DNA of 64,000 nucleotides, taken from UHGV virus genome UHGV-0084588. One strand, given 5' to 3'. The notes below the pieces were generated by a model. The model did no database searches, had not been told where the DNA came from, and worked only from the letters and a program-made list of their open reading frames with translations. This DNA comes from a virus. A program made the position numbers and the translations under genes. Shown one piece after another: positions 13,486 through 54,323 of this stretch; position 1 is the first letter of the stretch; the number at the start of each line of letters is the position of its first letter.

Positions 13486-13528
13486 ACCAACACTACAATT
13501 GTATTAAACCTTATAAGGATTAAGTAAA

Positions 13529-15376
13529 ATGGCTAAAGAGTTTATTGACAATCAAAACGACGTTGTGACTGGTGCTGCTGGTTCTGCTGCAGATCCAATT
13601 CCGTCTTTCGGTGGCGCGGGAGCTGCTACTGTGGATAATACCAATGCGGCCAACGCTTTTGGTGGGATGTCTAAAAACATCTCCACTTTCGATAAAGCTT
13701 TCGGATACATGTCTTTCGTGTCCACTGCTTCTCAGTTCACTAGCCTGATTGAGAAGATGGCGGAGAAGAACACATACCTGCGTAACTTCCGTTGGGGTGT
13801 CATTGACGGCATCAACTCTGAAATGGGTTCTGCTGCATACGTGGCTGGTCCGTCCGGCGATAACCATAACGAATGGCTCTACGGCATCCTGTTCTTTGAA
13901 CATGGCCAGTCCATCCGTTTCTACGAAATCAACGGTAAAGAAAACTACTACACCCTGGCGCAGCTGTTCAGTCAAGAAGGTGTGATGAACAACATCACTA
14001 ACCAGATTGCAACTCAACACAATCTGCCGAGCGTACAGTTCATGGTAATGAACTGCGTACCGGAACTGGGTAAAACCATGAACGAAGAATGGGCTAACCA
14101 GCTCATGGGCCAGATTGCACTGGGTATCTTCGGTCGTCATTCTGGCTACCTGGGCTACCTGAAAATGACCCGTTCTGATCGCTTCACCGCGCAAGTTAGC
14201 GTAGTTGAAGAAGGTTCTGTAACTGACGTTAACGGTTCCGCACAGCGTGCTGACCTGATGGTTGTGGTTGACCATACTCGTACCGGCAACAACGATAATA
14301 ACCCGACGCTGTTCTCTTCTGAACGCCTCCAGAATTATCCGAGCGTTGCAGGTGTTGGTTACATCAACCTCCGCCATAAAGGTAAACCTCAGACTCTGAC
14401 CAACGGTACTCAGGACCTGCGTCAGCTGGAAGCCGAAGTGGTTGTTTCCCTGATGGATTCTCAGTCCTCTGGGGCAATGGCACCTATCGAGCGTCAGCTG
14501 ATTGAACTGGCCGCGTTCGCACAAATCGCCACTATCGGTGGCTGGCGTGAACGTTTCATGCAGTCGCTGAACAAAACCGATCGCCGCTTCTCCCGCGTTC
14601 TGGAGTATGTAGAATGGGGCAGCGAAAAACCTGACCTGAGCAAAATCGACGGTAACCGTGAAGTTATCGAGAAATGCCTGGACACCTTCGCTAACCCGAC
14701 TGCAGCTCTGGTGGTGAACCATCGTGCAGGTAACGGTATCGGTGGTCTGTCTACTCTCCTGAGCGAAATCGGGATGGGTAACACCAACGCACTGTACACC
14801 CTGTTCAACATCCTGGATAACATGGCCAGCAACGGTGCGACTAAGTTCAGCACTCGCTTCAAAGCACTGCTGGGCAATGTCACCAACTTCGAGTGCAAAC
14901 ACGTTGTTATTGCCGGTTGCCCGACCATCTCTGGCCAGTATTTCAGCAACAGCCAGAAACGTAGCTTCCAGGATATGGACTTGGTTTCCGCTCTGACTAA
15001 AGTGGGTGACAACCAACGCGATGCGATCGACTACATCAGTGCACAGTCCTACTCTCACCGCTATCTGAATGCGCGTGACCAGCGTCTGTACCTGCTGAAA
15101 ATGGCTGCGTCCATGTTCGGTAGCAAACAGCCGCAGGTAACGGGTGAAGCGTCTGACCTGGCGATCAATCCGTTGTTTGGTAAGGCACTGGTGGAATACA
15201 TCACCGAAAACTGCAACTTCCAGGTGAACGGTGTTACCGCAGCGAACAGCCTCACTCACTCTGTGTTTGTTAACACGGGTAATGAGAACTTCGCTCTGTC
15301 TGGTAGCGGTCCTAACGCATTTGGTAGCGATTTCGGTATGTCCTTCGCTGCAACTGACTGGCGTCCGACTTTCTAA
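13529..15376 (+). CDS. abundant 615-aa protein; candidate phage nuclear-shell (chimallin-like) protein, alternatively a major capsid protein
   Basis: Strong bias to E. coli-type optimal codons; tandem promoter repeats upstream; strong terminator downstream; lies directly upstream of the RNAP beta-prime N-terminal gene, which from memory matches the phiKZ gp54-gp55 arrangement. Confidence 0.45.
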   Translation: MAKEFIDNQNDVVTGAAGSAADPIPSFGGAGAATVDNTNAANAFGGMSKNISTFDKAFGYMSFVSTASQFTSLIEKMAEKNTYLRNFRWGVIDGINSEMGSAAYVAGPSGDNHNEWLYGILFFEHGQSIRFYEINGKENYYTLAQLFSQEGVMNNITNQIATQHNLPSVQFMVMNCVPELGKTMNEEWANQLMGQIALGIFGRHSGYLGYLKMTRSDRFTAQVSVVEEGSVTDVNGSAQRADLMVVVDHTRTGNNDNNPTLFSSERLQNYPSVAGVGYINLRHKGKPQTLTNGTQDLRQLEAEVVVSLMDSQSSGAMAPIERQLIELAAFAQIATIGGWRERFMQSLNKTDRRFSRVLEYVEWGSEKPDLSKIDGNREVIEKCLDTFANPTAALVVNHRAGNGIGGLSTLLSEIGMGNTNALYTLFNILDNMASNGATKFSTRFKALLGNVTNFECKHVVIAGCPTISGQYFSNSQKRSFQDMDLVSALTKVGDNQRDAIDYISAQSYSHRYLNARDQRLYLLKMAASMFGSKQPQVTGEASDLAINPLFGKALVEYITENCNFQVNGVTAANSLTHSVFVNTGNENFALSGSGPNAFGSDFGMSFAATDWRPTF

Positions 15377-15403
15377 TAAGTTGGTAAGTAGTAAGCAGTA
15401 GTT

Positions 15404-15447
15404 GAGGGACAGGGGAAAACCCCCTGTCCCTTCCCTCTCTTTTTTTG
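15404..15447 (+). terminator. rho-independent terminator
   Basis: hairpin gagggacagggg-aaaa-cccctgtccc followed by T-run. Confidence 0.7.
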
Positions 15448-15460
15448 TTGAGGATTCGGC

Positions 15461-16828
15461 GTGGAACATAAACTAGAATATTACGGGATTTCAGGGCGAC
15501 TAATTAGTCACGATAAAATGCTACGTGACTGTATACAAGAAGCGGAGGAAAAAGGCTACAAACCCCCGATTATTATCAATGACGTTGCTGCAACGATGGA
15601 TACCATCGAAGCGTCAGAGATGATTAACCAAATACTTCAAAACCGAATCGTTGATGAAACACTCAACTCGGCTCCTATTTGCAGTCTGACCTGCGAATCA
15701 CCTATTACCCATCGTTATAATCTTGGGTTACGTTGCCCACATTGTGGTCATGTTGTTTCTGAACATCGGATTACGTCCGAAGTTTGGCTACGTGCACCCG
15801 ATGAGATAGGTAACTTTATCAATCCACGTTTTTGGTCTCTCTTTAATGCTTTCTTTGGCTCTAAGCTGAAAAAATTTAATCGTAACAAAGTGACGGTAGA
15901 GCGTGGTTCTGATTTGCTGCTATGGCTAATCGATCCGTACTACCATCCAGAAAAGGACGAAGGAACACGTGCTCGTGTGGTGAAAAGAATCCTCAGCGAA
16001 CATGGTTTCGAACGGGGAATTCGAAACTTTATCGACCACCATCGAACCGTCTTTAATATCCTTACGTCCCCGGAAGCTTGGAAGGAGATTTATCCACCGA
16101 CGAAAAACAACCGTTATGAGAGTGAACGCGTACGCTTAGAATGGCGTGAGTTCTTTCAGGAACAATCGTTCTCATTCTTTCCAAGACACCTTCCGATTAT
16201 TTCATCGAAACTGATCGTTACAGAGGAGCGCCGACAAGGTATCTTTATCGATCCCGTTTACACCAGTGCCATCGATGCAGTAAAAAATGTGGCGTTGTTG
16301 TACACGAATGCACGTCGTATCGAACCACGATTTATTATTCGTCGCGCGATCAAAGCGAATCGACAACTTGCGTATTTCTATATTGACCATCGTCAGGAAG
16401 TGATGGAAGGTAAACCTGGGTTCTATCGGGCAAAACTCGGGTCAACGCACGTACCGTGGGGCGGACGTGTGACTATCTCTCCTATCTCTGAACCTCACGA
16501 TGCGTTGAAAGTTATTGCGCCTTGGCGTTGGTTAGTTCCGTTGGCGAGTGTTCACATTGAGAACAAGTTAGGTCGACGTGACTACACACCTCGACAGTGT
16601 GAACGAATTATTGCATTCGCGGCAATGCAGTATGTACCGTTGGTACATGAAATTATTAATGAGCTGATTAAAGAATCCCCCGGCGGATTCGGTTTAATGT
16701 TGGAAGTTCTACGTAACCCAACATTGGTTCAGCTTTCTATTCAGACATTGTTTATCTCGGCGGTACTGACAGATGTAACACAATGTTCTCTGCGTATTTC
16801 TGATCGCGTCATCAAAGCACCTAATGCT
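15461..16828 (+). CDS. RNA polymerase beta-prime-like subunit, N-terminal fragment, exon 1
   Basis: Zn-ribbon C-x4-C...C-x2-CG; GKPGFYRAKLG...GGRVTISP matches [41 protein letters not shown] matches NRAPTLHRLGIQAF; ends ...KAPNA where bacterial beta-prime has YNA|DFDGD; GTG start. Confidence 0.75.
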
Positions 16829-17178
16829 AAATACTGGCCCACTAGACGGGAAACCTCTAGTGCGTATCCCTCGAATTGCTGGGAACTCCTAAAGCTTACG
16901 ATCCCGACAGGGTGGCGAAAGTCAGAAACAATTCGTAAGATAGCCTATGCTAACCAATAATGCTAAGGGTTGAGATAATGGATAACCAGCAGCGATGAAA
17001 ATCGTTCAACGACTATCGAAAGGGTAAAACCGAGTAGAGTAGCTGCTTAGTTTAGCGGCGAAGTGGGGGAGACCTACGGGTAGCAATACCTACGGTTATG
17101 ATATAGTCTGTGCCCATGTGAAAGCATGGGAGGGTGTCATTGCACACCTGCTCCAAAAGGAATGGGGTGGACAAACAG
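16829..17178 (+). ncRNA. group I self-splicing intron (350 nt, no internal ORF) interrupting the NADFDGD motif
   Basis: Exon 1 ends in U and intron ends in G; joining gives ...APNA-DFDGDQ...; core-like elements (consensus from memory): P aattgctgggaa (16874-16885), Q aaccagcagc (16984-16993), R gttcaacgacta (17004-17015), S gatatagtc (about 17100-17108). Confidence 0.75.
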
Positions 17179-17418
17179 GATTTCGATGGCGATCAGTTAC
17201 AATGCAGATTGGCAATCGACCAGATTGAAATGGAACTGGGCATGGCTTATCGTCCAGACAACGGGTTTATGTCAAGCACGAATGTGGATGAGGTTTCGAG
17301 CTGCATGATTCTCCATAACGAGAACATCAGCAACATAAACCGTTTCTTCCAGGATACTGAAGAGGACCTGGAGGCCGGTATCGCGCTTGACTCGGAATTA
17401 TTAAAAATGGCGGGGTAA
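17179..17418 (+). CDS. RNA polymerase beta-prime-like subunit, N-terminal fragment, exon 2
   Basis: Begins DFDGDQ...; ...MSSTN matches bacterial ...MMSTNN; same frame as ORF 17134..17418, whose apparent GTG start has no spaced RBS. Confidence 0.7.
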   Translation, partial: DFDGDQLQCRLAIDQIEMELGMAYRPDNGFMSSTNVDEVSSCMILHNENISNINRFFQDTEEDLEAGIALDSELLKMAG

Positions 17419-17424
17419 TGAAAC

Positions 17425-18012
17425 ATGGGCATGTGGAACTTAGGCGGAACCATCTGGACGCGACAAACTGAAAATAGTGGGATGTATCGCTATTTCAGAG
17501 ACAATTTCGATATTAACGCCTTTGCTCCTGACATGATCGAAAGCGTTAAACGAAAATGTAATGAGTTAATTTCATTAGAGCGTTTCCGTGAGATGTATGC
17601 AGCCGCACGCAAAGTACAGCACAGCGATGCGACTGACGTTGTACGACAATTGGAGAAGATAGGACAATTCCAGTTTGCAAACGCAACCTTACAGCCGTTG
17701 CTAATGGCAATGCCGGAATATCGACAATTGTACAATAACAACATGGCGACCGGTTATGAAAACGGGTATTCGAAAATCGATAACTTCCGTGGTTCGGCGT
17801 ATATGCATACGGACGATAACTTCCGCGAAGTAACGTCGGGTATGTCCAACGAGTACGATGAAGATCGTATTTGGAACTGGGTATCCAACGAAGATCGATC
17901 CAACAAACTCACTCGTGTAGAGCAAGTTGACATGCAAATCAACTGGGCACGTATGCGGAATTTTGATTGGGAAGACGAAGATCCGTGTTCTGAACTCGGC
18001 GCTTCGTGTTAA
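17425..18012 (+). CDS. hypothetical protein (195 aa)
   Basis: ATG 6 nt after upstream stop; terminator downstream. Confidence 0.55.
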   Translation: MGMWNLGGTIWTRQTENSGMYRYFRDNFDINAFAPDMIESVKRKCNELISLERFREMYAAARKVQHSDATDVVRQLEKIGQFQFANATLQPLLMAMPEYRQLYNNNMATGYENGYSKIDNFRGSAYMHTDDNFREVTSGMSNEYDEDRIWNWVSNEDRSNKLTRVEQVDMQINWARMRNFDWEDEDPCSELGASC

Positions 18013-21167: not shown

Positions 21168-21812
21168 ATGGTCAATAAAAACTTCCTTAAAGAGAAATGG
21201 CTTTACCCACAGACTGAGCCGGATCAACAGGGCCGTACCCGTAAACTGGGCATTGAATTGAACGAATTCAATGGTGATGTGGAACTGATGAAATTCCACT
21301 ACTCCTTTGGTAAAGGCGAAGGTCTTTATTTCACCGCAGGCTATACTGTTTGCGTTGATATCTTTGAAACCCTGCGTACGGTGATGCAGAAACCCGAAAA
21401 AGTCGTTTTCAAATGGGAAGATGCAAAAGGTAAGAAGGCACCGGTTAGCTTACACGTAGGTCGTGATGAAAACCTGACACCGTTCTTTGCACTGAGCGGC
21501 GAGATCCCAGGGGTTGGTGCGCGTCAGAAGAAATTCTATTTCACTTATCCGAAAGGTTATCGTGTTTTCCGTAATGGACAACTGGTCTCCGATCTGGAAC
21601 TGGCAGAGCGTCAACTACGCGCGTTCCTGAAAAATGCGGATGTATTCCTGGAAGATTTCCGTGACAACTACAAACCGCGCGAGTTTAATAACGCGGGTGG
21701 TGGTAGTTACGGTCGCGGAGGTTACAATAACGGCGGCAATGGCGGCGGTTATAACAACCAGTCTGGTGCAAAAGCCCCAACACCAACTAACGATTTTGAC
21801 GATATTATTTAA
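21168..21812 (+). CDS. putative ssDNA-binding protein, or nucleic-acid-binding protein with an RGG/Gly-Tyr low-complexity linker
   Basis: C-terminal Gly-rich linker GGGSYGRGGYNNGGNGGGYNN and acidic tip NDFDDII resembling E. coli SSB tail DFDDDIPF; strongly optimised codons. Confidence 0.4.
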   Translation: MVNKNFLKEKWLYPQTEPDQQGRTRKLGIELNEFNGDVELMKFHYSFGKGEGLYFTAGYTVCVDIFETLRTVMQKPEKVVFKWEDAKGKKAPVSLHVGRDENLTPFFALSGEIPGVGARQKKFYFTYPKGYRVFRNGQLVSDLELAERQLRAFLKNADVFLEDFRDNYKPREFNNAGGGSYGRGGYNNGGNGGGYNNQSGAKAPTPTNDFDDII

Positions 21813-21831: not shown

Positions 21832-21862
21832 TAGCCCCAGGATATCCTGGGGCTCTTTATCG
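21832..21862 (+). terminator. terminator-like hairpin
   Basis: agccccagg-atat-cctggggct followed by a short T-rich stretch. Confidence 0.5.
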
Positions 21863-21894
21863 TGTATGTGTGTAGAATACAGTCGAAGTTATCT

Positions 21895-21911
21895 GAGATA
21901 GATTTTATCTT
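21895..21911 (+). promoter_or_regulatory. candidate promoter/operator, TAGAT-TTT-ATCT palindromic variant
   Basis: gagatagattttatctt about 35 bp upstream of ATG 21946. Confidence 0.3.
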
Positions 21912-21945
21912 AGTGCACGACTATGCTATTCCTGGAGATTTTAAA

Positions 21946-23574
21946 ATGCGTATTGAAAAGAATCGTGACCGTTTAGTGATAAAATACGGTGAAAAGGAGG
22001 TCGCGTTTAATGGTTTCCGAAACGGACGTAAAGACGTGAATGTGCCAGACGTACGCGATAGTTTCGGACAGATCGTAACGCATGATAAAATCATGTTCAT
22101 GGAAATCGATCGTTATTGGTCAACTTTAACGCCCGAAGAGAAAAGCGAACTGTTTTCAGTTTACGAAGAATTAGAGTTGTTAGCTAATGAACCCCCAGAA
22201 GTTATTCGTGAACACGTTCCCACACTCGTCGCGAGAATTGCTAAATTTCATCACGCAGATAGATTCCGCCAGCTTTATCCACACGGCTCGGTGTGGATTC
22301 CTCAAAACGTCCACGAAACGTACGAAGAGATGTCGTCGAATTATCCAAAAGAGATGACGTATATTGTACAAGATTATTACGAACTGGTGATTTTGTCTTT
22401 GATGACAAAACCGTTTATTCCAGTATTCTTGATTTTGGACGCTTTTCCTGCAACACGTGCTTCTGTTGAGTCGAAGCGCAAAAGTGTTTATAACCTGACC
22501 TACTGCATGGAGCTATTGTCGGATACCGAGATTGCCACGCTGCCTGCCATTACAAAGTTGCGTGAGTTTTTAGTGTCGGTGATTTCGAAAGTTCAAGACG
22601 GGGGCAGTAAAGGACCCAATACTGCAAATCTTACCGTCCTGGCATCTATCTGCGGCTACGGCACGGATATGGTAGAGGAATACATCGTAGCGTTCGCTGT
22701 TATCCGTTTAATTGCGATGAAGTTAATCGGTGCCGAGCTACCACCGGGTACGATGGTTGAAAACAACATCGTGGCGGGAATGTATTTCAATATTCGACAA
22801 GAAATTGAAACTGGCTTCGCGGGAAAAATTTCCGGTCAAAACGTGATGCTAAAAGCGAATCCTGAGAAAATCATGTTCAACGGCGAGAAGGGGAAAACTT
22901 CGTCGATTGACTTGGTTCAGGCTCGGACTAAAGCACCGATGAAAGAATTCGTTCGTACCCAAGAATTCTTTAATGACTACCGTCGTGCGGTGCGTGCTTT
23001 GAATCTCGATATTGCTCCCGCAGATGTGAAAGTGCTGATAGATTCTATCAACATTAATCATCAGTATCCGTTCTACGAACTCTACGAATGGTTGGTGGCG
23101 GCAGTGATGCACCGATTTGCAGATCGTCGTACATACAAGGAAATCGACTCGGAAGCATTTAAGAACGCGATGGGTATATCCCAAGCCGTTTACATCTATT
23201 ACGGAATGCCTGAGATTGCGCAGCTGTTAAGTTGTGAGATGATCCGGGCACCGCTAAATGGCGGGTATCCTATCGAACCGATCGATAATGAGATTAAAAT
23301 AAAAACGGATAGATATTATCCACAGGCATACCGTAAGCATCGTAATACTTACGAACAGTCAACGTTGAAGGATTCTCTCAGCTTGTTGGTTCGTGAGCAT
23401 ATTGCACCGTTCAACTTCAATCTCAGGGCAACACCGGAAGCAGCCAGAATGTTACGGTGTGGGACAGTGATGTTGGACTATTCGCCTCATCCGCGACTTC
23501 AGAACATGTTAGCAGAATTTCTGTTAATTCAAAACAGAAAGAAATGTGAAGAAGTGGCATGGTTTAATCAATAA
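21946..23574 (+). CDS. hypothetical protein (about 542 aa)
   Basis: ATG at 21946 with ggag RBS, chosen over ORF-track start 21862. Confidence 0.5.
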   Translation: MRIEKNRDRLVIKYGEKEVAFNGFRNGRKDVNVPDVRDSFGQIVTHDKIMFMEIDRYWSTLTPEEKSELFSVYEELELLANEPPEVIREHVPTLVARIAKFHHADRFRQLYPHGSVWIPQNVHETYEEMSSNYPKEMTYIVQDYYELVILSLMTKPFIPVFLILDAFPATRASVESKRKSVYNLTYCMELLSDTEIATLPAITKLREFLVSVISKVQDGGSKGPNTANLTVLASICGYGTDMVEEYIVAFAVIRLIAMKLIGAELPPGTMVENNIVAGMYFNIRQEIETGFAGKISGQNVMLKANPEKIMFNGEKGKTSSIDLVQARTKAPMKEFVRTQEFFNDYRRAVRALNLDIAPADVKVLIDSININHQYPFYELYEWLVAAVMHRFADRRTYKEIDSEAFKNAMGISQAVYIYYGMPEIAQLLSCEMIRAPLNGGYPIEPIDNEIKIKTDRYYPQAYRKHRNTYEQSTLKDSLSLLVREHIAPFNFNLRATPEAARMLRCGTVMLDYSPHPRLQNMLAEFLLIQNRKKCEEVAWFNQ

Positions 23575-23604: not shown

Positions 23605-25311
23605 ATGGCAATGAAACTTTTGAAACTGCAAATGTATCCGGTGTACGAAATCCCAGAGCAGATTCGTCGTCGTATCGGGTTCTTTGAATCGCAGCACGCT
23701 TTGGATGAGTTAGTGGATGTGGTCGCAGAGCACGGTGATAAAGCAACAGGTTCTCGGGCTTATCAAGAAGCCCTGGGTCAGATTGTGGGCTTCGATAATA
23801 CTCCAACCGGTATTGAACGCCCATTCATTAACGTGAGCGATAATGAATCACAGCCAATCCACTTTGCGTATAACTCTCGCGATACGGGTGTGTATAACTT
23901 CGTGGCGATTATTGTTTCGAACTCGTTAAATGACACACGGACTCAAGAAACGCGTTATGTTGTTTCTGGGTATACATCTCAGGCAGAGCGGTCTATGTTT
24001 AATCACCTGCCGGATGACATGGTTCTGTATATCAACGAAATATACGGATTACAATGTACGTATATCACCGATGCGTTTGGTGGGCGTCGTATCAACCCGG
24101 ATTCTTTCCGTCTGATAGACAACTATGTGTTGTCCAAGACACTAACTGCGGACAGTTATGTGGAACACACCATCGACGTTATTTCTACCGCGAAAGCGGC
24201 TGATATGGTACGTAAAGTGGTGAAGGCAGGCGAACAGATTGAGCTGGATAATAACACGGTTATCTCCGCTAATTGCCAGCGTGCGCCACAGTTGATGTCT
24301 AGTCAATTAACCCGACCGGAATCTTTCGTGACGGCAATCTCCAATTCCTTTATTAACACCATGGGGATTGAAACGGAGCTGAGCGCAGTAGATAGTTTCT
24401 TCGCAGGAGATCATTCTCTTGGGGTAGAATCTGAACTTAGTCAGATCGGCGTGATGCGTAACTTCAATAGTTACGAATTGGTGAAGGCGTTTAGAACAGC
24501 CATATCCAACGCCACGTCAGATATGACTAGTGGTTGGAACGTTGCGAACCGTGCAGCATTTAAACTGTGTGACTTGCGTAATGCGGTGGTTAATCCCGAA
24601 GATGTGGATGCTGCAATTGCGCACTCGCTGGCTGTCGCGGCCCGTCGTGGTTTTGGTGAAATTGAACGCACCGATGATTGGGTAGGGCGTAATAACTATT
24701 CTACTCAGGGTTCATTAGTGGCGTTTGATTTAGCCATGTTACTGGGGCCTGTGGTCACCCGTAATCTTATCGGTGAAGTGACTTTCTTCTACGATAACCG
24801 TATGGCGGATATTGCAACACCTCCTCTGCTGCAAGTGTCAAAACACAACGTTGGGGCATTAACTGAAGACGGATTACCGGATGTGTTAGCACGTCGCTTC
24901 TTAAGTGACTTACAAGGCGTATTCTTGCAAGTGACTAAACATAACCGTATTCGTTGTAAGATGACTGTAACGTGTATCGTTGGGGTGGTTTCGCGTATTG
25001 AAATCGAAATCGATGGCGAGCTGCCTGAGTATTATACACATGCGTCGTTCATGAAAGCACGTCTGCATTGCGGTACAACAACTGACCTTCAGTACACGAA
25101 CCAGTTAGCTGCAGAAACAGCACAGCTGATGAATAAAGTGGAAGAAGGGTACCAAGAATTCAACCGTGGTCAGAACCGTTCGAATATCCTGTCGAATATT
25201 CCAACTGCCCCTGTGTCTGCGCCTACAAGCCTGGGTAGTTTCGGTAGCTTTGGCGGCAGCGATATGTCAACGCCTGTGCCAGTGTCTGGCTTTGGTGCAT
25301 TCGGCGAGTAA
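23605..25311 (+). CDS. hypothetical protein (568 aa) with C-terminal FG-repeat tail
   Basis: Conserved RBS context ctaaaggagtattta; C-terminus SLGSFGSFGGSDMSTPVPVSGFGAFGE. Confidence 0.6.
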   Translation: MAMKLLKLQMYPVYEIPEQIRRRIGFFESQHALDELVDVVAEHGDKATGSRAYQEALGQIVGFDNTPTGIERPFINVSDNESQPIHFAYNSRDTGVYNFVAIIVSNSLNDTRTQETRYVVSGYTSQAERSMFNHLPDDMVLYINEIYGLQCTYITDAFGGRRINPDSFRLIDNYVLSKTLTADSYVEHTIDVISTAKAADMVRKVVKAGEQIELDNNTVISANCQRAPQLMSSQLTRPESFVTAISNSFINTMGIETELSAVDSFFAGDHSLGVESELSQIGVMRNFNSYELVKAFRTAISNATSDMTSGWNVANRAAFKLCDLRNAVVNPEDVDAAIAHSLAVAARRGFGEIERTDDWVGRNNYSTQGSLVAFDLAMLLGPVVTRNLIGEVTFFYDNRMADIATPPLLQVSKHNVGALTEDGLPDVLARRFLSDLQGVFLQVTKHNRIRCKMTVTCIVGVVSRIEIEIDGELPEYYTHASFMKARLHCGTTTDLQYTNQLAAETAQLMNKVEEGYQEFNRGQNRSNILSNIPTAPVSAPTSLGSFGSFGGSDMSTPVPVSGFGAFGE

Positions 25312-25333
25312 AAGATTAATCAAGGACTCTTAA

Positions 25334-26713
25334 ATGAAAATTATTGAATTCTATAAATCGTTTCTTAAATCACAAGGATTCGATTTTGAAAACGATTTAC
25401 TCACTCGTGACGGTGGTGAACCGGCAGAGTTTACGTACAACAAAGTGAAGCGCCGTTTGGCGCTTCCTACCCCAGCGATGATTAAGCGCGGTATGGAAGA
25501 CGATGATGGGCGTGAATGTCAGGCTTTTCATCCGCTGTGCGAATCGGTGCTGGCAGGCGAATCAGGGACAATTCGTTTTCTGAAGAAATCCATTAATGCG
25601 AACCTGTTCATTCGTTCCTTTGCATTAATCGACGCGATTCTGGAAACGGGGGCAAGTGGCAAAGCAGTACGTTCAGCTTCCTACAAGAAGTTCTTAACAG
25701 AACAGATTTGCGAAGGGATGAAAGATCCGACGTTCGACGAACGTTTGGTGAAATCCTGGGAAGCGGTGAAAGCGTTCGTCTATGGGCAATTGGAAAAAGA
25801 TAAAAAGCACAAGATCACCCAGCTTTTTATTGCATCTGATTTAGTTATCGACGGCGTGAAGTTTAACCGTGTAGCTAATTATCGGAATATGTTCGAAGAA
25901 GAATCGTTAGATGGTACTGCAATGTACTTCTCTGCGAAGCTTCAACGTAAACAAGACAAAATCATTATCCATCGTTTATTGACCACTGTGTTCGGTTGGT
26001 ATCCGAGCGTAACGGGGTCTAATGATTCGCGTCCGTATTTCGGTTGCTTAGCACGTGGTTGGGCGCAGTACGTTGTGAATTATAACAACGTCGTTAAGGG
26101 ATTGCGCGACCACACATCTTTACGTCCGTTGGAAGATGAATGGATTTCTCAGCTGGACAATATGGATATTTACGATAACGTCATTCAGACTTTACCGTAT
26201 AACACCGGCCCACGTTCTGACAGCCCTGAACGTGATACCACGGCGCATGATTTCCGTATCGATCGTGCGCAGGCTCCGCAGCAGATTCCACAAAAACGTG
26301 CGTCGGATGCAGATAAAGCGGATAAGTCCGATCCGATGGAATTCTTCCGTGCTCGTGAACGTAACATGGCCACGCATAGTCCTTATGGGAATTTGACGCC
26401 AGCGATGCAACGTTACGCCGAGCAGCACGGAACAACTAACCCTGCCAACGGTATGGTAAGTCGAATTTCTGTTGTGGATGCGTTTGGTGGAGAGCGCAAG
26501 GTGTCACCTTTCGGTGGTCAGAGTAACTTCGGTGTAGGGAATACCGGAGGTTCTTTGGCAAGTACCTTTGGCGGAGGGAATAATTCTTTCAGCGGGAATG
26601 TAGGAGGGACTAGCGCGTTTAGCACGAGTTCAGCATTTGCAACGAATAGCAGTTTTGGCGGGCAGCCGCAAAGCAGCTTCGGTGGATTTGCAACTTCGCC
26701 ATTTACGCGCTAA
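25334..26713 (+). CDS. hypothetical protein (459 aa) with about 110-aa C-terminal FG/GFG-repeat low-complexity tail
   Basis: Tail: AFGG, PFGG, NFGV, TFGGG, SFSG, SSFGG, SFGGF separated by Ser/Thr/Asn/Gly spacers. Confidence 0.6.
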   Translation: MKIIEFYKSFLKSQGFDFENDLLTRDGGEPAEFTYNKVKRRLALPTPAMIKRGMEDDDGRECQAFHPLCESVLAGESGTIRFLKKSINANLFIRSFALIDAILETGASGKAVRSASYKKFLTEQICEGMKDPTFDERLVKSWEAVKAFVYGQLEKDKKHKITQLFIASDLVIDGVKFNRVANYRNMFEEESLDGTAMYFSAKLQRKQDKIIIHRLLTTVFGWYPSVTGSNDSRPYFGCLARGWAQYVVNYNNVVKGLRDHTSLRPLEDEWISQLDNMDIYDNVIQTLPYNTGPRSDSPERDTTAHDFRIDRAQAPQQIPQKRASDADKADKSDPMEFFRARERNMATHSPYGNLTPAMQRYAEQHGTTNPANGMVSRISVVDAFGGERKVSPFGGQSNFGVGNTGGSLASTFGGGNNSFSGNVGGTSAFSTSSAFATNSSFGGQPQSSFGGFATSPFTR

Positions 26714-26719
26714 GTGAAG

Positions 26720-26752
26720 TAAAAAGAAGGGACCGAGTCCCTTCTTTTTTTA
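26720..26752. terminator. bidirectional terminator between convergent genes
   Basis: hairpin aagaagggac-cgag-tcccttctt flanked by A-run and T-run. Confidence 0.65.
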
Positions 26753-27073
26753 ATCATTACCGATGGTGCTAATAATCTCACTAACCGTTCCGACGTCGGG
26801 TACGATTAGTTGCGTGATTTCAGGGGTGAAATTCATGGGGTCTTCTAGCCCGTTTAATAGCATCATTGGATAGATAATGATATCGGCGTAACCTTTGAGT
26901 TTACAGTAGGCGTAGAAATTGTGGACCTCAGGCCAACTGTAGCGTGGGTCAACATTTTCTATTTTAGTTTTCGGGTGTTTACGCAGATAGTCTGTGTAAT
27001 CGTGCATCACTTTCCACGTCGTGGTGTAAGGCGCAGGTATGAATTCTTCTAGGGTAATAAAATTGTCTAACAT
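26750..27073 (-). CDS. hypothetical protein (107 aa), lone minus-strand gene
   Basis: Minus-strand ORF with aggaa RBS. Confidence 0.5.
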   Translation of the reverse strand: MLDNFITLEEFIPAPYTTTWKVMHDYTDYLRKHPKTKIENVDPRYSWPEVHNFYAYCKLKGYADIIIYPMMLLNGLEDPMNFTPEITQLIVPDVGTVSEIISTIGND

Positions 27074-27136: not shown

Positions 27137-29374
27137 ATGAAAACGCCAGTAGAGCTAATGAGCAGTGTGGCTGACCGTGAGATTAATATCACCGAAGTAT
27201 CAGGTGCAAGGGCATCGATGGTAGGCAACCATATGAAGTCTGCGGTCCCTATCGACAATCCTGAACCATCGCCACATTTTACAGGGGCAGATATAAACTA
27301 CCACGATTTTCTGTTCAATGACGTTGTAGAAGATCCCGGTAGCATCTGCCACTATATGACCAAAGACGGTCGTCAGCGCCGTGCGACATTTACACGTTAT
27401 GGTCGTCGTGGGGATTCTAAAGCGTTGGAACATGCTATCTTCTTCCGCCGTGCAGAAATGAAGGGCGGTAAAACCATGATAGATGTGTTGGAGATTAACT
27501 TCTATACTAACCACGACAACATCTTCTCATCTGAGAAACGTGAGTCGATGAAACTGCGTAGTATTTTACGTGGTGAAACCGATCAGTTGGAAAAGGATGA
27601 AATTCTTACAACAATGTCGTGTATGGTGGAAGGTGAGTACGCTGATAGCGTCGTGCTACCAACCGTTACGATTTCGCATCCTGATATTATCGAGGATTCT
27701 TACACCATCTCTGAGTACGCCGCCCAAAAGCTCCACGGCTACGGTTTGAAAATCGTTGAAAAGACGCTACGCGAAGACGAGTTTTTACTGGATACTTACG
27801 GTTATATCGATCCGAATGGTAATCGTGTCCCACGCTATTTCCCGGATGTGGGGGAAGCTATTCGTGATGATGGGCTGGTCATTGCATCACGTCGTTTCGA
27901 TGAGCTTTACGGTGCGATTGATGCGTCGCTTGGGGAAACCCAACACGTCTCCCCGTTCTTTGATAGTTGCGAATATGTGGATGCCGATCCCGTCCATTAT
28001 AAAGCACGCCTTGCGGGCGACAAAGAACTGATGGAGAGTAGCGGTACACGCATCGTCGATATCCAGGTGTGGCGTGATGAAACGTCTTGCGCGAATGGTA
28101 CCAACAATATTTCTTGTACCGAAGAGAACAAACGAGAACTGGATAAATACGCATTAGCATTGAAAGACTATTACAATGCCATTGTACGTTTCTATTTCTC
28201 GATGTCTCGTGACAAAAATATTATCTGGTCACCGAAGGCGTGTGTGCTGTTGGAAAAAGCCTTCGCTTCCGAAACGTACGAAGTCTATCACGAGTTTCGT
28301 GAAGAGATTCGCGTAGTGATTGATGAAGCGATTCGTCGTGGTGAATATGGTAAAGAAAATGTCAGTCAGCAAATTCTTTCTAAGTTGACCGCACCAGTAC
28401 AGCGTGGACTCAGCGATCCCATCAACACGTATACCATTCGTATTGCTGTTCGTTATCCGATCCCGGTAACGGTGTCGTCTAAGATTACTGACCGTTCGGG
28501 TACGAAAGGGATTGTTGGACGCGTGTTACCCGTTGAACAGATGCCGATTAACGAATTCGGTGAACGTGTTCACGTTTTACGTTCGATGAACGCTGTAATT
28601 CGTCGCTCGACTTATGCAGCACTATTCCACATGTATTGGTCAGCTGCGTCTGAGCAGTTGAAGATGCGTCTTAAACCAATGCTGGACGAAGGCCGTATCA
28701 GTGAATGTTGGGAAATCCTGATGGATTATCTGTCACGTTATAATCCTGAATGGGCCAACACACTACAGGTAACACATCCTACGGAGGATTTACAACGCGA
28801 ACTCTTTAAAGAGATTTACGATTTTACAATACGTATTTACTTGCCACATGAACTTGACGACACGCCAGTCGATATCAGTGAACGGTTGGGTGAATTTAAA
28901 CCACGTAAATCAAAACTTCTACTTACTAACTTCGACGGTAAGCAGGAATGGACAAAAGATGAATTTTACGTAGGTGGTGTGGAAACATTGCGTCTGGATA
29001 AAACAGGTCGTGAGTTTTCCAGTATCTCGTCAATGTATCTGAATTATCTGGGTACGATAGACGCATCTAACCAAGGTCGTGGCTCGTATCCGATAAACTA
29101 TAAAACGCTAAAATGGGCTGGTCCTTCGGAAGAACGACTGTTAGCGGGTTATGGTCCAGGTAACTACGAAGAAGTTCACGATAGGGCAAATAACCCTGCG
29201 GTACATCGTGAGATTTTAGTAGGGCTTTATCGATCTCAAACCCCATCTAATCCGGGTCCATTAGTAGACCGGAATAAATTCCCGTTAGGGGATTCGCAGA
29301 TTGACAGGATGATGAAAAACATCCACAACTGTGAAGGGTTTGAATTGGTGAAAATGAAAAGGGGCGATGAATAA
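27137..29374 (+). CDS. RNA polymerase beta-like subunit, C-terminal fragment
   Basis: ARASMVGNHMKSAVP matches ANRALMGANMQRQAVP; IIEDSYTISE matches YNFEDSILVSE; GTRIVDIQVWRDE matches GTVIDVQVFTRDG; DRSGTKGIVGRVLPVEQMP...SMN matches GRHGNKGVISKINPIEDMP...SRMN. Confidence 0.75.
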   Translation: MKTPVELMSSVADREINITEVSGARASMVGNHMKSAVPIDNPEPSPHFTGADINYHDFLFNDVVEDPGSICHYMTKDGRQRRATFTRYGRRGDSKALEHAIFFRRAEMKGGKTMIDVLEINFYTNHDNIFSSEKRESMKLRSILRGETDQLEKDEILTTMSCMVEGEYADSVVLPTVTISHPDIIEDSYTISEYAAQKLHGYGLKIVEKTLREDEFLLDTYGYIDPNGNRVPRYFPDVGEAIRDDGLVIASRRFDELYGAIDASLGETQHVSPFFDSCEYVDADPVHYKARLAGDKELMESSGTRIVDIQVWRDETSCANGTNNISCTEENKRELDKYALALKDYYNAIVRFYFSMSRDKNIIWSPKACVLLEKAFASETYEVYHEFREEIRVVIDEAIRRGEYGKENVSQQILSKLTAPVQRGLSDPINTYTIRIAVRYPIPVTVSSKITDRSGTKGIVGRVLPVEQMPINEFGERVHVLRSMNAVIRRSTYAALFHMYWSAASEQLKMRLKPMLDEGRISECWEILMDYLSRYNPEWANTLQVTHPTEDLQRELFKEIYDFTIRIYLPHELDDTPVDISERLGEFKPRKSKLLLTNFDGKQEWTKDEFYVGGVETLRLDKTGREFSSISSMYLNYLGTIDASNQGRGSYPINYKTLKWAGPSEERLLAGYGPGNYEEVHDRANNPAVHREILVGLYRSQTPSNPGPLVDRNKFPLGDSQIDRMMKNIHNCEGFELVKMKRGDE

Positions 29375-52910: not shown

Positions 52911-52992
52911 TAATTTAGATTCGTAGTTCCGTACAGTTCTTGAAATAAATCATCAGGGGAACAACGCGTTCCCCTTAGAGGAAAAGCTTAAA

Positions 52993-54258
52993 ATGGCGAA
53001 TTTCTACAAAAACAAAATTGCTCGTGAGTCTATGGAGTCTACCGCTACTGTAGTTCCAGACGGCATCGAACTGCCAGCAGAATCCGTAGAAGGTACTCTG
53101 GCCGATATCGAGCATGACACCAAACCGATCGAAGCCCTGGACGCTGACGCTGAACTGCTGGCAGAAGACGGCGACGAAACTGACGCTCAGCTGGATGTTC
53201 TGGATGAAGCTCAGGCCGCTGCTGACGGTGAAGGTGCTGGCGAAGACGGCGAAGACCCGATGGACGCCGAAGAAGATATGCCGGACGACGCTGCGACCGC
53301 GCTGGACGTTGCTCAGGAATCTATCCGTTCTCGTTGGAACTTCGAACACCGTTCTTCTGTTGCTCACGAATCTTACGGTTCTCGTAACCGTCGCCAGGTG
53401 GCTCGTGAATCCCTGTGGGAAGACATTAAAGCCTTCCTGGGCCGTATTCTCGATTGGCTGAAAGAACAAGGCCGTAAACTGAAAGATCGCTGGCTGAAAT
53501 TCCACAACCAGGGTAAATCTATCCAGGCGCGTGCTAAGAAATACGATGAAGTTATTCGTAAGCTGGGCAAACAGAAGAAAGATGAGATCTCTGGTGGCTT
53601 CATCAAGTCTCTGTCTATCGATGGCAAGTTCGTCGGTGATAATATTCCGAAACTGAAAGGTATCCTTAACCAGGTTTCCACATTCTATAGCGCTAAGATG
53701 CCTGCCATGGCCTCTAAAGCTGCTGAAGTGGTTTCCGATGTTACCAAAGGTAACGGTGTTAAAGTTGAAAAACTGAAAGCCGACTTTACCGAACTGTCCA
53801 AACAAGACAGTCTCCAAAACTTCAAACTCGGTAACATGGCAGTGAAAACCGAGTATGACAACGAAGGCGGCTTCAGCTCCACTTTTGTTGAAGCTGAAAA
53901 TAGCGTTGAAACTAGCGTGAAAACTCCGTCTGTTGGCGAACTGGCTAAAATCAATGCTCTCTTCAACGAAGTGGGTAAACAGATCGAGAAGAACGTTCAG
54001 GATTATCGTAAAGTCGAAAGCGCGCGGAAAACTTTTGAAGATAATATCGATAAGCTCCTGAAAGAAGTCGATAAAGTTAAGATCGACGAAAAACCGGAAC
54101 TGACCGAAGGTGTACGTGCTGCCCGTCGTTTCATCACCAGCGTTAACCAGGGCCTGTCTCTGGGTGAGAAGGTTATTGCTTCTACTCAGAAACACCTGGC
54201 CGGTGGTCTGAACGGCTACCTGAGTGCTGGTATCGGCGCTTACGAAAAATCTAAATAA
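52993..54258 (+). CDS. abundant acidic protein, paralog B (421 aa); function unknown
   Basis: Same conserved blocks as paralog A; acidic D/E-rich N-terminal region. Confidence 0.65.
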   Translation: MANFYKNKIARESMESTATVVPDGIELPAESVEGTLADIEHDTKPIEALDADAELLAEDGDETDAQLDVLDEAQAAADGEGAGEDGEDPMDAEEDMPDDAATALDVAQESIRSRWNFEHRSSVAHESYGSRNRRQVARESLWEDIKAFLGRILDWLKEQGRKLKDRWLKFHNQGKSIQARAKKYDEVIRKLGKQKKDEISGGFIKSLSIDGKFVGDNIPKLKGILNQVSTFYSAKMPAMASKAAEVVSDVTKGNGVKVEKLKADFTELSKQDSLQNFKLGNMAVKTEYDNEGGFSSTFVEAENSVETSVKTPSVGELAKINALFNEVGKQIEKNVQDYRKVESARKTFEDNIDKLLKEVDKVKIDEKPELTEGVRAARRFITSVNQGLSLGEKVIASTQKHLAGGLNGYLSAGIGAYEKSK

Positions 54259-54275
54259 TCTCTGATTGTTTAGTA

Positions 54276-54323
54276 AGAGAACCACCCTGTAATGGGGTGG
54301 TTCTCTCTTTTCTTTTTTTTTTC
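54276..54323 (+). terminator. rho-independent terminator
   Basis: hairpin gagaaccaccc-tgtaat-ggggtggttctc followed by a long T-run. Confidence 0.75.

Follow-up and report, generated by a model that had tools for sequence, protein, structure and literature searches.

The window analysed here, a stretch of 64,000 nucleotides (nt) of the virus genome UHGV-0084588, carries at positions 23605 to 26713 two adjacent open reading frames (ORFs), ORF1 and ORF2, whose products are orthologs of the phage nucleus proteins PicA/Imp1 and PhiKZ gp70. Both proteins end in disordered, low-complexity tails that are enriched in Phe-Gly (FG) dipeptides. Across related phages the composition of these tails varies together with that of the flexible extensions of the shell protein ChmA (chimallin) of the same genome, and it does not vary with the tail of the neighbouring protein ChmC. 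The families to which ORF1 and ORF2 belong are known; the tail feature and the family-wide matching pattern are previously undescribed. Tentatively, we propose that the tails are fast-evolving modules for shell affinity or cohesion that are selected for their composition, with a role in shell binding and localisation.

The two proteins and their tails

The window comes from a chimallivirus, that is, a nucleus-forming jumbo phage. The initial annotation, made from the sequence alone, had suspected a phage that builds a proteinaceous nucleus and had pointed to the protein starting at 13529 as its putative shell protein. This is borne out, as the family of the protein encoded at 13529-15376 matches the chimallin family (201phi2-1 gp105, PhiKZ gp54, Goslar gp189) over 476 columns (HHalign 98.5%, E=1.9e-15). 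The window ChmA is 50% identical to the syntenic SPN3US protein and had no match in direct Pfam and PDB-HMM searches; a ChmA homolog from locus L035, 40% identical to it, has a precomputed PF25677 hit. The nearest cultured relatives of the window are the Erwinia phages phiEaH2, Stratton and Asesino and the Salmonella phage SPN3US, and an uncultivated 225-kb IMG/VR contig shows 99% identity to it. The features concerned are listed below, with lengths in amino acids (aa) and disorder expressed as the predicted local distance difference test score (pLDDT).

13529..15376, + strand: ChmA (chimallin) homolog, nuclear shell protein, 615 aa; HHalign and synteny; FG in the flexible extensions at the N-terminus (aa 1-65) and at the C-terminus (aa 580-615)
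21168..21812, + strand: protein at the ChmC/Imp6 position with an Asn/Gly/Tyr-rich tail, the control tail; synteny; tail type as in ChmC (PMC11077065)
23605..25311, + strand: ORF1, 568 aa, ortholog of PicA/Imp1 (PhiKZ gp69, PhiPA3 gp63); phrog_3141, E=7e-128; profile match; synteny
25195..25308, + strand: disordered C-terminal FG tail of PicA/Imp1, aa 531-568 (38 aa); pLDDT<50; 4 FG from 4 Phe
25334..26713, + strand: ORF2, 459 aa, ortholog of PhiKZ gp70, PhiPA3 gp64 and 201phi2-1 gp126; phrog_3520, E=6.5e-124; synteny
25334..26194, + strand: folded N-terminal domain of the gp70 family, aa 1-287; pLDDT ~90 (AlphaFold2)
26195..26710, + strand: disordered C-terminal region of the gp70 family, aa 288-459 (172 aa); mostly pLDDT<50 (AlphaFold2), with weak helices at 334-365
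26456..26710, + strand: FG-rich low-complexity tail of the gp70 homolog, aa 375-459; 11 Phe, 6 FG, 7% charged

ORF1 is a distant ortholog of PicA/Imp1. The profile of its family (24 sequences) aligns over 462 columns with that of 12 PicA-position proteins, including PhiKZ gp69 (HHalign 99.1%, E=7.4e-19). The homology to PhiKZ gp69, PhiPA3 gp63 and Goslar gp174 covers the whole folded body, although identity over the aligned profile columns is 15%; the gene has the same position, flanked by the gp68 and gp70 homologs, and it co-occurs with ChmA, as in relatives. Its start is possibly Met3 at 23611, as the homolog consensus opens with MKL. The AlphaFold2 model, built on homolog alignments, is folded with confidence from residue 1 to 530, with a long helix (495-530) at the end of the body. 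The C-terminus reads ...TSLGSFGSFGGSDMSTPVPVSGFGAFGE and, given at length, ...NIPTAPVSAPTSLGSFGSFGGSDMSTPVPVSGFGAFGE. Such a 38-aa FG tail is undescribed in the studied orthologs, of which that of PhiKZ ends in ...FSFQVL and that of PhiPA3 in ...ADLGLL, whereas that of Goslar is without a low-complexity tail. Previously, gp69 was identified as PicA/Imp1, an essential and highly selective import factor that forms puncta on the shell, and both the puncta and the import role were reported in PhiKZ, PhiPA3 and Goslar (PMC11087766; bioRxiv 10.1101/2024.03.27.586873).

ORF2 lies directly downstream of PicA and upstream of the gene for the nvRNAP (non-virion RNA polymerase) beta subunit, again as in relatives. 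Its residues 4-299 align with residues 5-293 of PhiPA3 gp64 (BLASTP E=1e-18), and tblastn gave matches for the family in PhiPA3, Goslar, RTH11 and others. With PhiKZ gp70, PhiPA3 gp64 and 201phi2-1 gp126 it shares the N-terminal domain, the gene order and the long disordered low-complexity C-terminal region that all members have, but the tail of ORF2, which ends in ...VVDAFGGERKVSPFGGQSNFGVGNTGGSLASTFGGGNNSFSGNVGGTSAFSTSSAFATNSSFGGQPQSSFGGFATSPFTR, is built of Phe-Gly with Ser/Thr/Asn spacers and those of the Pseudomonas phages of Met/Gln/Pro/Gly. PhiPA3 gp61, gp63 and gp64 were found on the nuclear shell and are early, non-virion proteins; gp63 and gp64 were proximity-labelled with ChmA and RecA as baits and co-purify with ChmB (PMC10643120). 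The shell association proposed in the initial annotation is therefore supported by the PhiPA3 homologs of both ORFs. A location in virions seems unlikely, as the homologs are reported to be non-virion (PMC10643120) and the records of 201phi2-1 gp125/126 and PhiKZ gp69/70 carry no virion mass-spectrometry notes.

FG dipeptides are enriched in both tails beyond what composition alone would give. Within the last 40 aa of ORF1 Gly follows all four Phe (composition-preserving shuffle, P=0.0005), and in residues 375-459 of ORF2 it follows 6 of the 11 (P=0.009); in the latter stretch the Phe residues are spaced 3-13 aa apart, only 7% of the residues are charged and S/T/N/Q/G/A/P sum to 71%. In the AlphaFold2 models, pLDDT is below 50 in ORF1 531-568 and over most of ORF2 288-459, and both bodies are confidently folded. 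When all window ORFs of at least 80 aa were compared, only three reached at least 4 FG within 100 aa: ORF1, ORF2 and the shell protein at 13529-15376. These results confirm, at the exact coordinates, that both proteins have FG-rich low-complexity tails that are disordered and charge-poor. The figure of about 110 aa over which FG was said to be dense in ORF2 is somewhat too high: the Phe-bearing stretch covers about 75-85 aa within the 172-aa disordered region. The further statement that such tails are unusual for phage proteins found no support, since every full-length gp70 homolog examined (about 60 sequences, from a family of 191 phage records found by tblastn with PhiKZ gp70 as the query) has a low-complexity tail.

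Comparison with the nearest relative, locus L004, shows how these tails evolve. The ORF1 tail is 59% identical between the two and the body 82%, with 5 FG retained in L004; for ORF2 the FG region is 46% identical and the N-terminal domain 93%, with 6 FG in the window and 9 in L004. The tail sequence thus changes fast while FG counts are kept or raised, the pattern expected under selection on composition. Gene conversion and tandem DNA repeats were ruled out as the origin of the tails, as ORF1 and ORF2 share only 13-nt matches that code for S-F-G-G.

Two short motifs in ORF2 may be binding motifs. DPxxFF (aa 333-338, 26330-26347) lies in a weakly predicted helix and recurs in most of the SPN3US-like clade, not in Caitlin, and '(I/V)S-L/V-x-x-A-Phi-GG' (26456-26490) marks the start of the low-complexity tail and has no likeness to the N-terminal segment (NTS) of ChmA. 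For Pseudomonas phage Churi, the gp70 homolog (OM718002.1, 206613-207911) bears the label 'Med15 subunit of mediator complex protein'; this label almost certainly arose as an artefact, from the Gln/Met-rich tail of low complexity.

Tail composition and the ChmA extensions across relatives

We surveyed the tails of about 80 homologs from a large protein collection and took ChmA, ChmC, PicA and gp70 from 22 genomes; an IMG/VR search with a closer gp68 set gave only 16 loci, mostly reference phages. Barring a few scrambled or outlying database entries, the tails of the approximately 80 homologs are all of low complexity, and their key residue varies by lineage. Among them, FG tails are confined to the window's own lineage. 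LG/LLG tails are present in the phiEaH2, SPN3US, Caitlin and Kwan lineages, where the PicA and gp70 tails of the Caitlin group also share 'NSLLD', and the CR5 lineage has F/NPF. Within the 22-genome set, the SPN3US-like clade has tails of a Phi-Gly type; PhiKZ, PhiPA3, 201phi2-1, Deimos-Minion and CF8 have a Gln/Met/Pro(/Gly) type, and pVa-21, Xoo-sp14, PCH45, KpLz-2_45 and RSL2 an Arg/Asp(/Ser/Glu) type. As orthologs carry LG, NSLLD, NPF, Q/M/P or R/D tails instead, the idea that FG is itself the functional unit found no support.

In most of the 22 genomes, the flexible N- and C-terminal extensions of ChmA share their type with the gp70 tail and, where it is present, the PicA tail; Goslar, CF8 and PhiKZ show only a weak match. 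All four segments are Arg-rich in pVa-21, for example, with ...RKDEGRRSDERARR... in the ChmA N tail, ...SGSRRRGSRTRYRR in its C tail, ...RDRDRRSPRSERRR... in PicA and RRDRRDDRRSSRRDD... in gp70. ChmA of Erwinia phage Deimos-Minion (locus L013, 807-2942) has at aa ~348-377 an internal Gln/Met-rich insertion, PQQQMGYQQQMMMGMNPQQ..., that resembles the Gln/Met/Pro tail of its own gp70, which indicates that matching segments need not be terminal. The PicA proteins of PCH45 (L031, 18414-19883) and KpLz-2_45 (L032, 18365-19888), which have little or no low-complexity C-terminal tail, carry at aa ~145-185 an internal Arg-rich loop (e.g. SRRSRRGRDD), of the Arg/Asp type like their own ChmA and gp70 tails.

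The tail of ChmC served as the control. ChmC/Imp6 (gp67) binds RNA, and its Asn/Gly-rich tail drives the formation of condensates in vitro (PMC11077065). Like the PhiPA3 homologs of ORF1 and ORF2, it is early, shell-associated and encoded close by, and it has a disordered low-complexity C-terminal tail; its folded part, however, is an RNA-binding Whirly fold, and its tail has the same type in all 22 genomes, Asn/Gly with aromatic residues (Tyr/Trp) and an acidic end, independent of ChmA. The window protein at 21168-21812 aligns collinearly with PhiPA3 gp61 at only E=0.075 (BLASTP), and both its position and its tail type (NNAGGGSYGRGGYNNGGNGGGYNNQ, with the acidic end NDFDDII) fit ChmC.

To quantify the match, a log-odds composition model derived from the gp70 tail of each genome was run over all ORFs of its locus (20-64 kb). 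The top non-self matches were PicA and ChmA, plus ChmC where Gly dominates the model, and in most loci no other real ORF scored as high. PicA and ChmA took the first two ranks among the 35-44 ORFs in pVa-21, PCH45 and KpLz-2_45, three of the five genomes of the Arg/Asp type; for Xoo-sp14 ChmA came first and PicA fell outside the top hits, and RSL2 gave no result because the non-overlap ORF filter dropped its ChmA and gp70. The same filter lost the ChmA of the window, which was displaced by an antisense ORF (13520-15469). In a cross-genome matrix of 18 genomes, both ChmA and PicA scored higher within their own genome than against other genomes (permutation p<5e-5 in either case), with a clear three-block structure and an effect that persisted when Gly was ignored; the ChmC tail showed no own-genome effect in this matrix (p=0.95). 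Over 19 genomes, the charged fraction of the gp70 tail correlated with that of the PicA tail (Spearman rho 0.82) and of the ChmA tails (0.68), and the Leu fraction with that of the ChmA tails (0.84). The corresponding values for charged and Leu fractions were 0.09 and -0.05 between the gp70 and ChmC tails and 0.11 and -0.14 between the gp70 tail and its own core.

Within the SPN3US-like clade, the switch between Phe and Leu is concerted in the three proteins, as the following counts (gp70/PicA/ChmA tails) show.

Window: Leu 1/2/1; Phe 11/4/9
L004: Leu 1/1/1; Phe 11/5/9
CR5: Leu 4/2/2; Phe 8/4/9
L035: Leu 9/5/6; Phe 6/2/6
phiEaH2: Leu 14/9/9; Phe 3/0/5
SPN3US: Leu 18/8/8; Phe 1/0/7

At a homologous position of the ChmA N tail, AP-L-GG of the relatives is PS-F-GG in the window lineage.

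These results bear on the explanation that the tails have no specific function and are entropic spacers or solubility tails, whose composition drifts with the mutational or expression constraints that each lineage places on the early genes of the shell region. Very fast divergence (46% identity in the ORF2 tail against 93% in its body) is what such drift would give, and it would also agree with the absence of the tail from some PicA orthologs and with a gp70-tail composition that partly tracks the core of ChmA. However, the tail is there in every full-length gp70 homolog examined, and FG counts have held steady or risen in spite of the divergence. Moreover, the ChmC tail, from the same gene block, shows no parallel drift, the gp70 core does not follow its tail in charged or Leu content, and in most loci no other real ORF scores equally on the tail model, so we consider this explanation unlikely. 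Genome-wide compositional bias as the sole cause is weakened by the same ChmC and gp70-core controls and by the locus scans; the correlation with the ChmA core remains.

Gene order and other features of the window

The conserved chimallivirus block runs in the order ChmA, nvRNAP beta', SbcD, gp66 homolog, ChmC (PhiKZ gp67), gp68, gp69, gp70 and nvRNAP beta, and ORF1 and ORF2 are syntenic with their counterparts in PhiPA3, SPN3US, Goslar and PhiKZ. Further members of the region are as follows.

15461-16960: nvRNAP beta'-type gene
17425-18012: protein at the Imp3 position
21862..23574, + strand: gp68 homolog; phrog_3209; BLASTP to PhiKZ gp68 E=6e-9; synteny; without a low-complexity tail
27137..29374, + strand: nvRNAP beta-type subunit (PhiKZ gp71-73 position); Pfam RNA_pol_Rpb2_6; phrog_3295, E=7e-251

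PhiKZ gp68 is the fifth subunit of the nvRNAP. Between the nvRNAP beta'-type gene and the protein at the Imp3 position there are about 460 nt (16961-17424) without any ORF of at least 150 aa. A 107-aa gene on the reverse strand (26750-27073, phrog_3455) directly follows the gp70 homolog in nearly every chimallivirus locus that we fetched, with counterparts in SPN3US gp233, Goslar gp172, 201phi2-1 gp127 and others, and it is the sole reverse-strand gene from ChmA to the nvRNAP genes; the label 'baseplate wedge protein' given to it in RTH11 looks doubtful. Two long antisense ORFs are probably spurious, one of 649 aa opposite ChmA (13520-15469, reverse strand) and one of 436 aa (52975-54285, reverse strand) opposite the gene at 52993-54258. 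The second is Phe/Gly-rich by chance and surfaced in the FG scans.

Possible roles at the shell

PicA and gp70 each consist of a folded body and then a disordered C-terminal low-complexity tail. On the reading that we tentatively favour, the composition of that tail would be held to that of the flexible N- and C-terminal ChmA extensions of the same genome while its sequence changes fast. Through many weak like-with-like contacts, both among themselves and with ChmA tails and linkers, the tails would hold PicA and gp70 to the lattice or gather them at the import site. FG would simply be the chemistry of this lineage. ChmA itself is flexible in its N- and C-terminal segments, and its NTS and C-terminal segments (CTS) dock on neighbouring protomers (PMC9365700).

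Several points weigh against the tails being shell-affinity modules. Some PicA orthologs (Deimos-Minion, PCH45 and Goslar) have no C-terminal tail. PhiKZ gp70 has been treated as intranuclear, and no pull-down with Imp1 was obtained in E. coli (bioRxiv 10.1101/2024.03.27.586873). 201phi2-1 ChmA without its N tail (residues 1-47) is still incorporated into the shell, in an assay that concerned ChmA only (PMC9365700). The independent switches of tail type are few, roughly 5-8 on a poorly resolved neighbour-joining tree in which the Arg/Asp type is paraphyletic, and therefore the permutation p-values are too optimistic. The composition of the gp70 tail also tracks the core of ChmA (rho 0.81 for Q+M+P and 0.57 for charge), so part of the signal could be lineage-wide bias or surface co-adaptation. 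Finally, ordered similarity between the tails beyond composition is weak (Smith-Waterman scores against shuffled tails, mean z 0.3-1.0), with the exceptions of PicA and gp70 of Caitlin (z=4.9, from NSLLD) and of PicA against the ChmA C tail in pVa-21 and Xoo-sp14 (z=3.4).

Ordered motifs are central to another explanation, that of a tethered docking peptide. Here a motif at the extreme C-terminus would enter a pocket on ChmA, in the way of CTS2 or of encapsulin cargo-loading peptides, or on a further shell factor, for example ChmB, and the rest of the tail would be a leash. The C-termini, ...GF-x-W/F in gp70 and ...GF-x-L/F/Y in PicA, are aromatic or hydrophobic and alike within clades. In PhiPA3 (L008, 18368-21314) both proteins end in LGLL and in 201phi2-1 (L029, 18281-21254) PicA and gp70 end in LGLL and MGLI, although these endings are unlike the ChmA C-terminus. 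As PhiPA3 gp63 and gp64 also co-purify with ChmB (PMC10643120), their common LGLL could be a shared docking motif. With a matrix of the last 8 residues of ChmA (CTS2), the C-terminus of gp70 came 1st and that of PicA 3rd among 58 ORFs of the window, and they came 3rd and 2nd of 18 in L035, but with scores near zero, and the ranks are high in several genomes and unremarkable in several others. The gp70 motif 'SLxxA-Phi-GG' was rejected as a mimic of the ChmA NTS: a leave-one-out NTS matrix placed gp70 only 4th to 18th among the ORFs of its locus, and the best gp70 segment fell on or next to the motif in Kwan and L035 only, with scores near 1. The initial suggestion that the tails mimic the terminal segments of the shell protein was thus supported as to composition, which is alike and co-varies across genomes; specific mimicry of the ChmA docking segments found no support, with a negative outcome for the NTS and suggestive ranks at scores of about 0 for CTS2. 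Together, the weak ordered similarity and the motif tests indicate that the robust signal is shared composition, and a leash would leave the match of the whole tail to the disordered ChmA tails unexplained. A short terminal docking motif within the tails is possible; as an account of the tails themselves, the docking peptide seems to us distinctly unlikely. The tails do resemble the NTS, CTS1 and CTS2 of ChmA, and the targeting peptides of encapsulins and microcompartments, in being flexible terminal extensions, of a kind that holds a shell together or loads proteins by docking on neighbouring subunits. The difference is that the match of the ORF1 and ORF2 tails is compositional, with no shared ordered motif.

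The initial annotation had compared the tails with FG-nucleoporins. A relation by sequence or fold found no support, as neither ORF1 nor ORF2 had a Pfam hit or an informative fold match. The likeness to the cohesive GLFG/FG repeats is one of chemistry and architecture: the tails are disordered and charge-poor, have Ser/Thr/Asn/Gly spacers with Phe preferentially before Gly (the shuffle P values of 0.0005 and 0.009 given above), and are borne on a folded anchor at a nuclear boundary. With this chemistry the tails may act physically like short nucleoporin FG domains while being unrelated to them. Yet the arrays are 5-10 times shorter, with only 4 and 6 FG per protein where nucleoporins have dozens, and FG is not conserved in the orthologs. 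We know of no transport receptors for the phage tails.

A convergent, nucleoporin-like gate would go further, in which the PicA and gp70 FG tails, perhaps joined by those of ChmA and ChmC, would fill or line the import opening as a cohesive selective phase. FG, LG, mixed-charge R/D and Q/M-rich sequences are all classes known to self-associate in eukaryotic work, which counts for such a gate, as do the disorder, low charge and FG enrichment of the tails. The role of PicA/Imp1 as an essential import factor found in puncta on the shell (PMC11087766; bioRxiv 10.1101/2024.03.27.586873) and the condensation of the adjacent ChmC tail in vitro (PMC11077065) also fit it. Against these stand the small number of FG, their lack of conservation, the missing nucleoporin relation and the tail-less PicA orthologs, and cargo is reportedly selected through folded PicA surfaces and not through FG-binding receptors (PMC11087766). 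On balance we think a gate of this kind improbable, and the selective barrier raised in the initial annotation found no support.

It is also conceivable that the tails are signals on PicA and gp70 themselves, read by the import machinery or by a protease, for instance for the lumenal placement of gp70 or the timing of turnover. PhiKZ gp70 is listed among the nuclear proteins (bioRxiv 10.1101/2024.03.27.586873), and the PhiKZ prohead protease cuts ChmA beside CTS1 (PMC9365700). Import, however, reportedly depends on folded surface patches and not on terminal signals (PMC11087766), and signals would leave the match with both ChmA tails unaccounted for, which makes this explanation very unlikely. 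More speculative than the favoured reading, and in our judgement improbable, is a disordered 'fuzzy coat' code, in which the ChmA, PicA and gp70 tails would together form a lineage-specific cohesive layer or plug, of FG type in this phage, that recruits minor shell proteins and gates import, the tail 'dialect' adding to the known species specificity of import. If true, it would amount to a small-scale, convergent counterpart of the FG-nucleoporin barrier.

The PicA/Imp1 and gp70 tails and their match to the ChmA tails are not mentioned in the primary papers (PMC11087766; bioRxiv 10.1101/2024.03.27.586873; PMC10643120; PMC11077065; PMC9365700) or in two reviews, which reach up to June 2026 (PMC12908238; PMC13282480). 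Full-text searches that combined FG-repeat or phenylalanine-glycine with phage nucleus or chimallin found none either; the Imp1 study as published in Nature and a preprint of September 2026 about Imp7 and nvRNAP import lie outside this scope.

The main open question about the phage nucleus concerns the passage of proteins through the ChmA lattice and the way in which PicA/Imp1 and other minor components are retained there. To our knowledge, no pore has been seen in the lattice and PicA has no recognisable fold. The matching of tails offers a concrete and cheaply testable handle on localisation to the shell, on import and on plaque formation. Should the tails serve for recruitment or cohesion, this would explain how unrelated proteins share one shell address and why lineages differ, and possibly part of the species specificity of import. 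The FG version of this phage lineage would be the clearest parallel to nucleoporin-type chemistry in a bacterial virus, and this would make it well suited as a model in which to ask if short FG arrays suffice for selective partitioning.

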